A DNA stretch of 40,252 bases from Candidatus Nezhaarchaeota archaeon WYZ-LMO8. Lineage in GTDB: Archaea; Thermoproteota; Methanomethylicia; Nezhaarchaeales; WYZ-LMO8. Location: the NCBI GenBank assembly GCA_004347965.1, contig QNVF01000006.1:1-40252 (forward strand), given 5' to 3'. Under the pieces are notes generated by a model. It saw only the letters and a list, made by a program, of their open reading frames with translations, was not told where the DNA came from and made no database searches. Shown here piece after piece: positions 23,881 through 27,067 of this stretch; the stretch's first letter is position 1; every line of letters starts with the position of its first letter. Made by a program: the position numbers and the translations under genes.

Positions 23881-25560
23881 TCAAGTTGCTTCTTTTCTTC
23901 GACCTCTCTGCTCCTCAAAGATCTTACTTAACGTTTGAATGGTGTCAACTTCCAGTGGTGACTTATCGTCCCTAATTCTAATTATCCTTGGGAACCTCAA
24001 TGCCAAGCCGGATTTATAGTGTGGGCTCTTCTGAACTTCGTCAAAGGCTACTTCAACAACTATTTTAGGCTCAACGTAGACTACTCTGCCTTCTTCCTTG
24101 ATAGCTACTTCTTTCAGTCTCTTAGTTATCCAAATGAGCTCCTCGTCAGTTAGACCGGTAAAGCACTTCCCAACAACCTCAAATTCGTTGTTTTCAGGAT
24201 TGTAAGCCGCTAAGTACAAGTCACTTAGCATTGAAGCTCTATATCCATGACCGTACTCAGCTGCTATAACTACAAGATCTAGGGTATTGAAAACTGGCTT
24301 TATCTTTAACCACTTCTTACCTCTAACTCCCGGTGTGTAAGGTGATTCTAAGTCTTTAGCTATGAGGCCTTCGTGACCATCCTTGAGAGCCTTCTCATAG
24401 AAGGTTTGAGCCTCTTCGTACTTGCTCGTAATTAGAGTTTCGATAATCACATCCTCGCTGACTACGCTTCTTAATATCTTCCTCCTCTCAATGTACGGTT
24501 TGTCTATCAACGTCTCACCATTTAAGTAGAGTATATCGAAGAAGTAGAGCTTCAATGGTATTTTGCTTACTAGCTCGCTCACACTTCTCTGTCTTCTAAA
24601 CCTCCTCATTAATAGCTGGAATGGAGCTGGCTTACCATTACTCGTAAGCGCTATTACCTCACCTTCAAAGACAGCGCTCTCAGCTGCAACCCTTTTTACT
24701 ACTTCAACTACCTCAGGTAGGCTTGTGGTCACGTCGGTTGCTCTTCTGCTAAATATCTTCACTTTGTCGTTGAGTTTATGAACTTGTACGCGAGCCCCAT
24801 CAACCTTAATTTCGAATGAAGCTCTTCCTCCCAACTCCCTCAGAGCTGATAGTAAGTCGTTAGCCTTCTCTGCTAGCATTGGCTTAACAGGGTGAAAAAG
24901 AACTATCCTCTGTCTTCTAAGTCCCTCAACTCCTTTAAGTTTAGCTATTCTCGCCGTCAAGCCAAGATCGCTTGTAAGCATATGAGCTCTCCTAACGAGC
25001 TCGTATGGCAAGTTAAAGGCATCAGCGATGGCTTCCTCCATTAATCCCTCGCTAAACCCATGTCTTCTCTCACCTAAAGCGAGCTTCACAAGGTACTTCA
25101 CCTCTACTGGTCTTCTAGCCCTCAATAACAGCCCATGAAAGAGCCTAATCTTCTTACGTCTAGAACCTTCTCCAGAAGCTCTTGCTATTGATTTAAATCC
25201 CTCGTAGACGTCCTTGATTGTTAAGTCGCCCTCAGAAGCCGTAAGCAACGGTATGCATCCTATCTTCTCAGCTATTCTCATGGACGCTAGGCCCAAGTCG
25301 CCGGTCGACTTGAAGACCTTGAAGAACTCACTCTTAGATGACGAGAACACCTTGATAACGCACCCAATAACTCCAGAAGCTCCAAGCCCTATCTCTGGCT
25401 CCCATGGCGGAAATAGTTCACCAATTATGAACCTAACTGCAAGCTCAAGATCGTTCACTTCTAGGTTCTTAATAAAGTTCGATACTAGAGAAATCATGGA
25501 GCTTCTAGAGCTAATAGCTTCGATCTCATCACAGAGTCTACATACATCGACGAAGAGCAT
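23881..25560 (-). CDS. lig: ATP-dependent DNA ligase
   Basis: DBD + NTase + OB; motif I [23 protein letters not shown], WLKIK and LRFPR. Probable start ATG 25560 (ORF open from 25596). Confidence 0.96.
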   Translation of the reverse strand: [559 protein letters not shown]

Positions 25561-25660
25561 TATTAACGAGCCCCCAACTATGGGCAAGATAAGCATGCAA
25601 TAACATTCTTACAAGTTAAATTGTCCACCGACTTAGAGCATCAACATAGCTACTCATGAA

Positions 25661-27067
25661 TTAATCCTCTCGTCTATCGTTGAACCACTTAAACAGTCCT
25701 CTAGGCTTAAATGTTCTCCTTCTTGAATTTAGAACTACATCCTCAAGGAATCTATCCCTAACAGGTTCATAGACCTCTTTGAAGAACTTCTGCTGGTCTA
25801 AAAGTACTTCCTTCTTAAAGCTCTTCAGGTACTCTAAGGCTGCCTGCCACGCTTTCTCATAAGCAACTACAGTGTTTATGTTCTGCATTATTTGCCTATC
25901 GTAGTCTTCAGGTCTTTGTTCTTGATCTCCTATGATAAACCAGCCTCTATCAGACACGAAAGCCAATTCATCACCTACTTGAATAGCTTTCTCCTCCCTC
26001 ATATCTTCACTCATCCTCTTCACGATCTTCGCCATCTTCTTAGACGATACCTCTTTGGCATGTCTCTTAGCCCATGCGTAAAATATTGCTCTATTCAATC
26101 CAAATGACTTTGCCTTCTCTAAGTCTCCAGTCAATAAGTAGTAGCGGGCTGCTTGAAGTAGTCCCATGACTTGAAATCGCCCAATTCTTCCTTTCCTCTC
26201 GATCTCCGCGACCTTGGGAGCAGCAATGGTGGTCCTAGCTTTCACTTCTATGGTACCAAGCCAGCCCTTATAACCACCTATCACTTCAAGGGCTTTAATG
26301 GCAGCTTCATCGCCCTCACCATCAACAAAGCCTCTCCACTCCTCATCATGCTTAAAGTTCTTAGGATCAGCCCACTCGAGCTCGAAGCTGTCTAGAATGC
26401 TGGGCTTAAAGCATACACAGCATAAATCCCTTCTCCTATGAAGTGCCAAAGGAGCTGTGAATACTCTTTTCAAGTCTATCTCATTTTCCACCTTAAGTCC
26501 GCTAGATCTTGACGCTACATCAAGTATACTGCTCCTACATCTTTCTAAGACGTAGTCCACTAATGAGTACGCAATGTCCAATGGATTATGTTTAAGCAAA
26601 ACATCGCTTGAAAAGCACTTTTCATGTACGTGAACGTGAGCCCCCTCACCACTCCACTTTATGAAGACAGAGTTAATTACTCCCAACTTCTCGAGCTCAT
26701 CAACTATGATTCTAGCTACCTCTATTACGTCTCTCCACCTCTCCAATTCTCCATCTATATCCCATATTGGGGAAGCGTAGGCTATGTTCTCGCGCTTCTC
26801 CAAGTCAAGCTTCGTAGCTAACTTACCATAAACATTCACGGATCCGTAAATGGTTCTGGGCTTAACACCTTTAAACTGCTTAATTAAACTCTCAACATCA
26901 AGTGGCGTATCAATCTTGAGGGGCCTTCCATCCCTCCAATACCTCAAGAAAACTCTGCTACCTAAAGTTCCTCCTTCGAGGGCAACCCACCTGCCTTTGC
27001 AGTAATCGGATATTTCCTTCTTAACCACCTCCTTCGAGTAATGTTGCTCAACGAGCTCGTAGTCCAC
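25661..27067 (-). CDS. Archaeo-eukaryotic primase (AEP)-like domain fused to an uncharacterised helical C-terminal domain
   Basis: Motif I PIWDIDG, motif II KWSGEGAHVH, downstream EID.KRVFTAPLALH; C-terminal GRFQVMGLLQAARYY..AKSFGLNRAIFYAWAK. Probable start GTG 27067 (ORF open from 27196). Confidence 0.75.
   Translation of the reverse strand: MDYELVEQHYSKEVVKKEISDYCKGRWVALEGGTLGSRVFLRYWRDGRPLKIDTPLDVESLIKQFKGVKPRTIYGSVNVYGKLATKLDLEKRENIAYASPIWDIDGELERWRDVIEVARIIVDELEKLGVINSVFIKWSGEGAHVHVHEKCFSSDVLLKHNPLDIAYSLVDYVLERCRSSILDVASRSSGLKVENEIDLKRVFTAPLALHRRRDLCCVCFKPSILDSFELEWADPKNFKHDEEWRGFVDGEGDEAAIKALEVIGGYKGWLGTIEVKARTTIAAPKVAEIERKGRIGRFQVMGLLQAARYYLLTGDLEKAKSFGLNRAIFYAWAKRHAKEVSSKKMAKIVKRMSEDMREEKAIQVGDELAFVSDRGWFIIGDQEQRPEDYDRQIMQNINTVVAYEKAWQAALEYLKSFKKEVLLDQQKFFKEVYEPVRDRFLEDVVLNSRRRTFKPRGLFKWFNDRRED

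Follow-up and report, generated by a model that had tools for sequence, protein, structure and literature searches.

A putative primase-polymerase family of Thermoproteota and Asgard archaea, encoded beside a Lig1-type DNA ligase in Candidatus Nezhaarchaeota archaeon WYZ-LMO8

Introduction

Proteins that belong to the superfamily of archaeo-eukaryotic primases (AEPs) are recognised by three catalytic motifs: DxD (motif I), sGxGxH (motif II) and an acidic residue followed by R..P.S.H (motif III). The catalytic primase subunit, PriS, carries a zinc-binding cysteine/histidine cluster. Mycobacterial Prim-PolC, another member of the superfamily, pairs with the ligase LigC in excision repair. Ligases of the LigC/LigD type have two domains and lack the N-terminal DNA-binding domain; Lig1-type ligase joins Okazaki fragments. 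Here we describe two co-oriented minus-strand open reading frames (ORFs) in a 40,252-nt contig window of Candidatus Nezhaarchaeota archaeon WYZ-LMO8 (hereafter the window, meaning the whole stretch of DNA that was analysed), one encoding an AEP-family protein and the other an ATP-dependent DNA ligase (Table 1). On balance, though without strong conviction, we favour the reading that these are two independent chromosomal housekeeping genes, namely a general replicative-type ligase and a stand-alone, catalytically competent, probably PCNA-tethered primase-polymerase for damage tolerance or repair.

The described proteins that the window protein matched best in structure were the polymerase domain of bacterial LigD (LigD PolDom) and Prim-PolC, with which it shares a compact AEP core that has no zinc knuckle and in which all three catalytic motifs are intact. 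Unlike them, it fell below the cutoff of the corresponding Pfam family (PF21686), showed no conserved linkage in the genome with a ligase or with Ku, and continued into a conserved C-terminal domain and a tail resembling a PCNA-interacting protein (PIP) box; the ligase that adjoins it was of the Lig1 type. PriS belongs to the same superfamily, has a similar motif layout and was found through weak PF01896 hits and structural matches, but the window protein lacks the zinc-binding cysteines, is encoded in a different genomic context and is fused to a C-terminal domain unlike PriL or PriX. PriSL(X) has been reported to act in double-strand break repair in Saccharolobus (PMC12019639). The Prim-Pols of plasmids and viruses (pRN1 ORF904 with its PriCT-1 domain, and PolpTN2) and the Nanoarchaeum PriS-PriL fusion are also alike in that a single polypeptide carries an AEP domain and, after it, a mostly helical accessory domain, and among such self-contained enzymes, as in the family described here, both split and fused versions exist according to the accounts in PMC5862659 and PMC3914693. 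They differ from the window protein, which has no helicase domain, is chromosomal and shows no mobile-element signals.

Results

The 468-aa protein has an intact AEP catalytic core

The translation start of the AEP gene is almost certainly the GTG at 27067. The N-termini of 30 homologues aligned at MDYELVE, which begins at this codon; a Shine-Dalgarno-like GGTG was present at 27075..27078, 8 nt ahead of it; and the closest database protein, from a Candidatus Nezhaarchaeales metagenome-assembled genome (MAG), was likewise 468 aa long (91% identity, 100% coverage).

An AlphaFold2 model of the protein, built from a 31-homologue alignment, had a mean predicted local distance difference test (pLDDT) score of 86.9. 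Within residues 1-270 most 10-residue blocks scored at least 93 and the lowest scored 85. Comparison of this model with the PDB using Foldseek yielded 50 structures at E<=1e-3; all 43 of those listed were AEPs. They included LigD PolDom (4MKY, E 1.6e-6), Prim-PolC (5OP0 and 6SA1, with target-normalised TM-scores of 0.55-0.57 at a root-mean-square deviation of ~5 Å), the CRISPR-associated Prim-Pol (CAPP) 7NQD, the non-homologous end joining (NHEJ) polymerase of Methanocella and, at E ~1e-4, the primase subunits PriS/Pri1 (9F28, 1G71, 1ZT2 and 5OF3). Residues D103, D105, S139, G140, G142, H144, E194, D198, R201 and H210 were invariant in all 31 aligned sequences; the region ENEIDLKRVFTAPLALH is taken by us to correspond to motif III of PriS and LigD. 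Membership of the AEP superfamily was confirmed by these model-based comparisons.

Sequence searches were far less informative. The protein had no PF01896 match at E<=0.1 in a Pfam scan and no match to an NCBIfam model, and PDB sequence searches with the single protein and with the family profile yielded nothing significant. PF21686 (LigD_Prim-Pol) was matched only below threshold (E 0.03; 14.3-14.6 bits compared to a cutoff of 27.4), as was the case in six of the 31 members.

The original prediction, which had been made from the letters of the sequence, described an ORF of about 470 aa with intact-looking AEP motifs, on the same strand as a ligase gene and about 100 bp from it. This description was accurate: the ORF encodes 468 aa, the spacer is probably 100 bp, the motif residues are invariant as given above, and every string that had been quoted, including the ligase C-terminus, was found in the translations. 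The proposed AEP fold was upheld by AlphaFold2 and Foldseek, which placed the N-terminal ~275 aa with LigD PolDom, Prim-PolC, CAPP and PriS. The further statement that the protein is not a plain PriS also stood, as it does not reach the cutoff of PF01896, lacks a zinc knuckle, continues into an additional C-terminal domain and is nearest in fold to LigD PolDom and Prim-PolC.

The family is widespread in Thermoproteota and Asgard archaea

A word-indexed protein search recovered 598 proteins, of which the best 120 were all at least 47% identical to the window protein and of the full-length type, except for one 359-aa fragment. Those of the 120 that carried a name were called 'hypothetical protein', apart from a single JGI record named 'DNA primase catalytic subunit', and none had a precomputed Pfam domain. 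In contigs that represented one archaeal or bacterial genome per species, relatives were present in 422 of 449 candidate stretches. The 80 best of these 422 formed the locus set used below (loci with the prefix L); all were from MAGs, and some of their taxon labels were clearly coarse or wrong. The labels were Nezhaarchaeales, Methanomethylicia, Bathyarchaeia, Thermofilaceae, Desulfurococcales (including Thermosphaera), Kor1, Kor3 and Kor4 (Korarchaeia-labelled), Brockarchaeota, Culexmicrobium, Nitrososphaerota/Nitrososphaeria and two "Woesearchaeota", together with the Asgard labels Baldr-, Odin- and Njordarchaeota and Asgardarchaeum.

A FastTree phylogeny of 78 rows grouped the sequences largely by taxon. 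The window protein fell in a four-row clade (support 96) with the Nezhaarchaeales locus L004 and with L001 and L003; L005 also fell in the window's own clade in the tree. L002 was absent from the tree owing to the ORF filter and was placed in the clade by its identity and shared neighbours. Two placings were odd: rows labelled Thermofilaceae occurred in two distant clades (L016/L023 and L021/L028), and the 'Odinarchaeota' row L025 was nearly identical to the 'Baldrarchaeota' row L029. Paralogy, transfer, or mis-binning or mislabelling of MAGs could be responsible.

The tree also bears on the origin of the gene, which might be a remnant of, or have been recruited from, the replicase of an integrated plasmid or virus. 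Many prokaryotic AEPs other than PriS are described as residing on mobile elements (PMC5862659), and one relative, P0182, carries a phage-like Prim-Pol domain (see below). Against this, phage and plasmid collections, PHROGs and PADLOC contained no match to the window-type AEP protein, no integrase or mobile-element gene was found nearby, the GC content was even, the neighbours were stable housekeeping genes and the tree followed taxonomy. We consider a mobile origin very improbable.

Full-text literature searches and passages of two AEP reviews contained no description of this family, which may have been mentioned earlier in Iyer et al. 2005 or in arCOG tables. The family apparently is uncharacterised. 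What appears to be new here is the family and its domain architecture, the AEP superfamily itself being known.

The family is probably distinct from canonical PriS

The protein could nonetheless be a highly divergent PriS, in which the fused C-terminal domain replaces or supplements PriL/PriX. Its N-terminal region follows the PriS pattern in having a Y-G-S element ~27 residues before motif I (compare motif 'G/S' of PriS as presented in PMC12770985). Weak PF01896 matches were obtained for 11 of the 31 members, and in addition to the JGI record mentioned above, an Atlas cluster of the family had been automatically named 'DNA primase family protein'. Strong conservation would be consistent with an essential gene. 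However, the strongest of the PF01896 matches (E 5.4e-4) was still below the cutoff, no NCBIfam model was matched, and the zinc-knuckle cysteines were missing from the 31 sequences, whose only invariant cysteine was C219. The conservation is also unlike that of PriS: full-length identity was ~50% across Thermoproteota and Asgard MAGs, whereas PriS is stated to be poorly conserved even within Archaea (PMC3914693). Moreover, some relatives of the window protein have lost the catalytic motifs.

The genomic context pointed in the same direction. Crenarchaeal priS is part of a PCNA-PriS-Gins15/LSIN supercluster, beside L44E-S27E-aIF2alpha-Nop10, in all Crenarchaea examined by Berthon et al. (PMC2643942), whereas the 53 ORFs that flank the family gene at 15 Desulfurococcales/Thermofilaceae/Thermoprotei loci included no PCNA, GINS, L44E, S27E, aIF2alpha, Nop10 or PriL gene. 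Near the AEP gene in the window there was likewise no PCNA, PriS or Gins15 gene and no L44E-S27E-aIF2alpha-Nop10 context. Furthermore, canonical PriS sequences of Thermoproteota, Odinarchaeia and Njordarchaeia appear in published PriS phylogenies (PMC12770985 and PMC12680538), and MAGs labelled Thermoproteota, Odin- and Njordarchaeota also carry the AEP family. An exhaustive search of 1.84 billion cluster representatives with the family profile retrieved just 404 at E<=1e-3; canonical PriS must account for thousands of clusters and so lies mostly beyond its reach. We regard it as unlikely that the family provides the replicative primase.

The C-terminal domain has an unrecognised fold and behaves as a module

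The C-terminal domain was the best-conserved part of the family, and the segment GRFQVMxLLQAARYYLLTGDLEKAKSFGLNRAIFYAWAK was nearly invariant. When modelled alone with AlphaFold2 the domain had a pLDDT of 84.5 and a predicted TM-score (pTM) of 0.80. Foldseek found no PDB match to this fold at E<=0.001 (best E 1.6), no match in the viral BFVD (best E 1.2) and no named Atlas cluster neighbour. The alignment of 31 sequences showed no conserved cysteines in the domain, and no Fe-S cysteines were present. By these structure searches with the predicted fold, the domain is not PriL-CTD, PriX or PriCT. In the PDB sequence searches the GRFQVM..LLQAARYY helix gave a weak Ku70 SAP-like match (1JJR, E 0.84), which was dropped for lack of significance.

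Many Bathyarchaeia encode the family in split form, with an AEP-only protein of ~300 aa and a protein of ~170 aa that consists of the C-terminal domain and starts at GRFQVM. P0182 (395 aa) combines this C-terminal domain with a different AEP domain, with the motifs VIDLDSE and SGNGLHIYY, which matched phrog_2478 'DNA polymerase/primase' in PHROGs (E 3.7e-5). The C-terminal domain can be described as an AEP-associated module because of these split forms and this domain swap. The reverse combination was seen in a sister group (P0132, P0137 and P0145; 399-419 aa), in which the family's own AEP domain, with intact motifs, is followed by an unrelated, helical C-terminal region of ~120 aa. Two of these three proteins have PIP-like tails (RLDEFFK and GLEDFL) and the third ends in RRLF. 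Fused forms longer than 819 aa were not found, which is weak evidence against a fusion to a ligase.

In an alignment that includes ten divergent relatives (alignment A6) the C-terminal domain was nearly unchanged. One of the ten is P0182; the other nine (P0147, P0153, P0167, P0169, P0176, P0178, P0181, P0188 and P0191; 366-458 aa) have lost both DxD and SGxGxH, have PIP-like tails and gave no match in a Pfam scan. To judge by their sequences these nine look like catalytically dead AEPs, and the protein of some lineages may work without catalysis. This raises the alternative that the essential function of the family is PCNA-associated DNA binding or scaffolding by the C-terminal domain, with AEP activity as an accessory. 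The conservation of the domain, its retention in all ten divergent relatives, its occurrence as a stand-alone protein and the position of the PIP-like tails after it would all agree with such a function. On the other hand, not one of the 31 aligned close members departs from the catalytic residues, which argues for selection on catalysis in the branch of the window protein, and in P0132, P0137 and P0145 it is the AEP domain that is kept and the C-terminal region that differs. We give this alternative little credence for the window protein.

At one locus (L014:9920-11386) the family gene was broken by an in-frame stop at the conserved W of FYAWAK, and the frame resumed in a 98-aa ORF. A sequencing error, decay into a pseudogene or a recent split of the gene could account for the interruption.

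A PIP-box-like tail is present in many members

The consensus PIP box is a C-terminal Qxx[LIM]xx[FYW][FYWL] that follows a flexible linker. In the window protein the motif GLFKWF is located in the C-terminal tail (Table 1). Among the 78 species-level members a relaxed PIP-like tail was present in 27, compared to a mean of 4.1 and a maximum of 10 after shuffling; the canonical form with glutamine was present in five, compared to a shuffled maximum of one. The first protein set gave a similar picture, with relaxed tails in 51/119 (shuffled 19.5) and canonical tails in 10/119 (shuffled ~1). Examples from the family are QATLDELF, KTLLDFFG and SLDEFFK, and all 11 sequences in alignment A6 end in a PIP-like motif. 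These tails suggest that the family protein is probably tethered to PCNA.

The adjoining gene encodes a Lig1-type DNA ligase

The ligase ORF may be read from 25596, but in the product of 23881..25596 the Pfam and PDB alignments start at residues 13-15, and orthologues begin at the second ATG. For these reasons the start is probably 25560, which leaves the 100-bp spacer given in Table 1. The protein passed the Pfam cutoffs for PF04675 (DNA_ligase_A_N), PF01068 (DNA_ligase_A_M) and PF04679 (DNA_ligase_A_C), and scored 414 bits against TIGR00574 (dnl1; cutoff 217.8). It scored below the cutoffs of the NHEJ-ligase models TIGR02779 (171 compared to 227.75) and TIGR02776 (137.7 compared to 373.2). 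Orthologues shared 71-80% identity with it.

The ligase had been predicted to look euryarchaeal and possibly to be a second, non-replicative enzyme. The first part agreed with the PDB comparison, in which Thermococcales ligases were the best matches: that of Pyrococcus furiosus (2CFM) gave 516 bits over the full length, and that of Sulfolobus (2HIV) gave 305. The second part found no support, since the DNA-binding domain is present, the dnl1 model was passed and the NHEJ models failed. Nor does the euryarchaeal look mark a specialised ligase, because two other Thermoproteota ligases share it. The Bathyarchaeota ligase at L007 scored 520 bits against Thermococcales ligases and 267 against 2HIV, and the Kor1 ligase at L032 scored 302 bits against Thermococcales ligases, with 2HIV not among the matches listed at 1e-60. 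Judging from these two further sequences, the euryarchaeal-like type looks usual for Thermoproteota other than Sulfolobales. According to Raymann et al. (PMC3914693), most of 142 archaeal genomes have essentially one copy each of DNA ligase 1, PriS and PriL.

Adjacency of the two genes is restricted to one lineage

The original prediction had tentatively joined the two genes into a Ku-independent gap-filling and ligation module, comparable to mycobacterial Prim-PolC/LigC or to LigD. Several features of the locus would fit such a module: the genes share one orientation and their 100-bp spacer is free of oligo-T tracts, L004 has the same tight layout with an 88-bp gap, and in structure the AEP domain comes closest to LigD PolDom and Prim-PolC. 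The neighbourhoods of the homologues did not bear it out, and a lack of linkage to ligases in other genomes had been named in the prediction itself as grounds for refuting it. The flanks of the 80 loci, which reached at least 2 kb downstream in 67 and upstream in 64, were searched by tblastn with the window ligase, which picked up even a 34%-identical ligase. A ligase was detected within the fetched flanks of five loci, and it was co-oriented and downstream only in L002, L004 and L005, all from the window's own clade. Even there the layout varied. The gap at L005 is 960 bp and holds a 298-aa ORF without a Pfam family; at L002 it is 3.5 kb and contains several ORFs, of which one is on the opposite strand; at L003 the 3.3 kb downstream are free of a ligase; and the L001 contig stretch ends at the family gene.

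None of the 75 other loci had a co-oriented downstream ligase. Two had a ligase elsewhere within 10 kb, convergent and 1.5 kb away at L007 and 2.5 kb upstream at L032, which is about the chance level for a single-copy gene within ±10 kb. With a three-domain ligase of the replicative type and no Ku gene in the window, we consider a dedicated repair module improbable. The AEP-ligase adjacency is limited to the Nezhaarchaeales-like lineage, and the two genes probably do not constitute a dedicated repair pair. A complex prediction for the ligase (559 aa) with AEP residues 1-440 scored 0.00 in two runs without controls and counts neither for nor against an interaction.

Clustering of 1,140 flanking ORFs revealed no family-wide conserved neighbour. 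The largest cluster, found in 12 of the 80 loci, was an ABC-transporter ATPase, and the others were metabolic or translation genes. The only replication-related neighbour seen was RNase HII, which is encoded ~5.8 kb downstream on the same strand in seven loci (L031, L034, L055, L060, L061, L069 and L075) from one clade of Brockarchaeota-labelled MAGs and their relatives. As an isolated case, one Thermofilaceae MAG has a TnpB/Cas12f-like ORF (PF07282 TNB domain; L021:12333-13430) that follows the family gene ~1 kb downstream.

A TATA-like box precedes each of the two genes in the window. The spacer of L004 retains TTTAACTT at the aligned position, and the TTTAT core upstream of the AEP gene aligns in four relatives. 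These boxes may represent separate promoters for the AEP and ligase genes.

Layout and other genes of the window

The coordinates of the features are given in Table 1. The remaining genes of the window are ordinary chromosomal ones, encoding CysRS, HMG-CoA reductase, an EndoIII-like glycosylase, a GINS-domain protein, transporters and cofactor enzymes, and the window contained no matches to tRNA, Rfam families, integrase, Ku, PCNA, PriS or PriL. GC content was even overall; it was lowest between 8001 and 10000 (0.375), with a second dip between 16001 and 18000 (0.389). The lowest-GC stretch contains a gene for a PIN-domain protein, possibly a VapC-type toxin.

The GINS-domain protein is encoded by a 153-aa ORF whose N-terminal residues 8-54 match Gins51_C (B-domain), which is a permuted, Gins23-like order; no MCM, PCNA or PriS gene adjoins it. 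Divergent from the AEP gene is an AMP-binding (PaaK-like) gene, listed from TTG 27393. The 54 in-frame sense codons upstream of this TTG (27231..27392) match the N-termini of orthologues (LQLERFKWTIEQASK...); none of these codons is ATG, GTG or TTG, and the start codon is therefore ambiguous. In L001-L004 this gene and the one that follows it keep their synteny with the AEP gene.

Table 1. Positions of the AEP gene, the ligase gene and other features within the window
Feature	Position	Strand	Details
AEP-family gene	25661..27067	-	468 aa; GTG start 27067; open frame runs on to TTG 27196 (25661..27196), an upstream start that is probably unused
AEP catalytic domain	26243..27067	-	residues 1 to ~275, from AlphaFold2 model and Foldseek
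AEP motif I	26750..26764	-	WDIDG, residues 102-106 (D103, D105); invariant 31/31
AEP motif II	26624..26653	-	SGEGAHVHVH, residues 139-148 (S139, G140, G142, H144, H148); invariant 31/31
AEP motif III region	26438..26488	-	ENEIDLKRVFTAPLALH, residues 194-210 (E194, D198, R201, H210); invariant 31/31
C-terminal domain	25718..26194	-	residues ~292-450; helical hairpin (GRFQVM..LLQAARYY / AKSFGLNRAIFYAWAK), small four-strand beta-meander, helical bundle
PIP-box-like motif	25682..25699	-	GLFKWF, residues 457-462; disordered C-terminal tail, pLDDT <50
Putative AEP promoter and ribosome-binding region	27075..27116	-	A/T-rich TATA-like ATTTAACTTTATTGG and GGTG
Spacer between AEP stop and probable ligase start	25561..25660	-	100 bp; no oligo-T tract; TATA-like ATTTAACTT at 25613..25621
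ATP-dependent DNA ligase gene	23881..25560	-	three-domain Lig1/dnl1 type, 559 aa; upstream in-frame ATG 25596 would give 571 aa
Ligase adenylation motif I	24790..24807	-	KVDGAR; K252, D254, G255 and R257 invariant in 6/6 ligases
PIN-domain protein gene	8159..8572	-	possible VapC-type toxin
Gins51_C-domain ORF	12431..12892	+	153 aa
PaaK-like (AMP-binding) gene	27231..28454	+	listed from TTG 27393
Gene following the PaaK-like gene	28535..29242		no Pfam family

Discussion

Our preferred reading, in which a general ligase and a stand-alone primase-polymerase are encoded by independent genes, suggests the following mechanism. The AEP protein would be a self-contained primase-polymerase that its tail recruits to PCNA. 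We infer a helper role for the C-terminal domain, as an accessory module that would handle nucleic acid or the initiating nucleotide in the manner described for PriL-CTD, PriX and PriCT (PMC5862659). At stalled forks or repair intermediates the enzyme would then restart priming or fill gaps, and the nicks would be sealed by the general ligase instead of a dedicated partner.

Several observations weigh against this reading. The structural likeness in Foldseek is slightly better to the gap-filling LigD PolDom and Prim-PolC than to primases, and the C-terminal domain has no detectable likeness to PriX, PriL-CTD or PriCT, so that the case for its helper role is one of architecture. The loss of motifs in divergent relatives means that the core function of the family is possibly not polymerisation. 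With regard to the tail, GLFKWF lacks the canonical glutamine, and ~15 of the 78 members are essentially tail-less, with many others having no PIP-like motif. The independence of the two genes may also be questioned. Their adjacency is kept in the window and in L004, which would allow a lineage-specific functional coupling, and as the spacer has no oligo-T terminator the genes could be co-transcribed. The 9-mer ATTTAACTT has two copies in the window, one upstream of each gene, but this count is not significant, as at least two copies occurred in 13 of 100 shuffles. Lastly, a search for a PriS-like paralogue around the 80 loci came up empty, both with a motif regular expression (four irrelevant matches) and by hmmsearch with the family profile (nothing beyond the family), although this is uninformative since the flanks cover ~1% of each genome.

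A more specific proposal is that many Thermoproteota and Asgard archaea possess, beside PriSL, a second deeply conserved chromosomal primase-polymerase with a new-fold accessory domain and a PCNA-docking tail, which carries out repriming or gap filling at stalled forks and would be a so far unannotated archaeal counterpart of PrimPol. We put this forward tentatively, as possible rather than probable. In its proposed role the family would be analogous to eukaryotic PrimPol, which is also a second, non-replicative AEP with an accessory C-terminal module and a motif for a replisome partner. It is unlike PrimPol in that the latter belongs to another AEP clade and has a UL52 zinc finger and RPA-binding motifs (described in part in PMC4538821). 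The analogy is one of function, and no homology beyond the superfamily emerged between the two. If this proposal is correct, some lineages have split the gene in two or keep a catalytically dead factor driven by the C-terminal domain.

For the locus itself, the idea of a polymerase-ligase module should be dropped, the two genes having most likely come to lie together by chance within this lineage. The AEP family is sizeable. It is present in 422 species-level genomes, lies outside Pfam and NCBIfam, has no solved relative and carries an accessory domain of unrecognised fold, on whose function the split, domain-swapped and catalytically dead relatives provide natural experiments. A second, PCNA-linked primase-polymerase, if that is what the family proves to be, would fill a gap in archaeal damage tolerance and enlarge the set of replication and repair components common to TACK and Asgard archaea.

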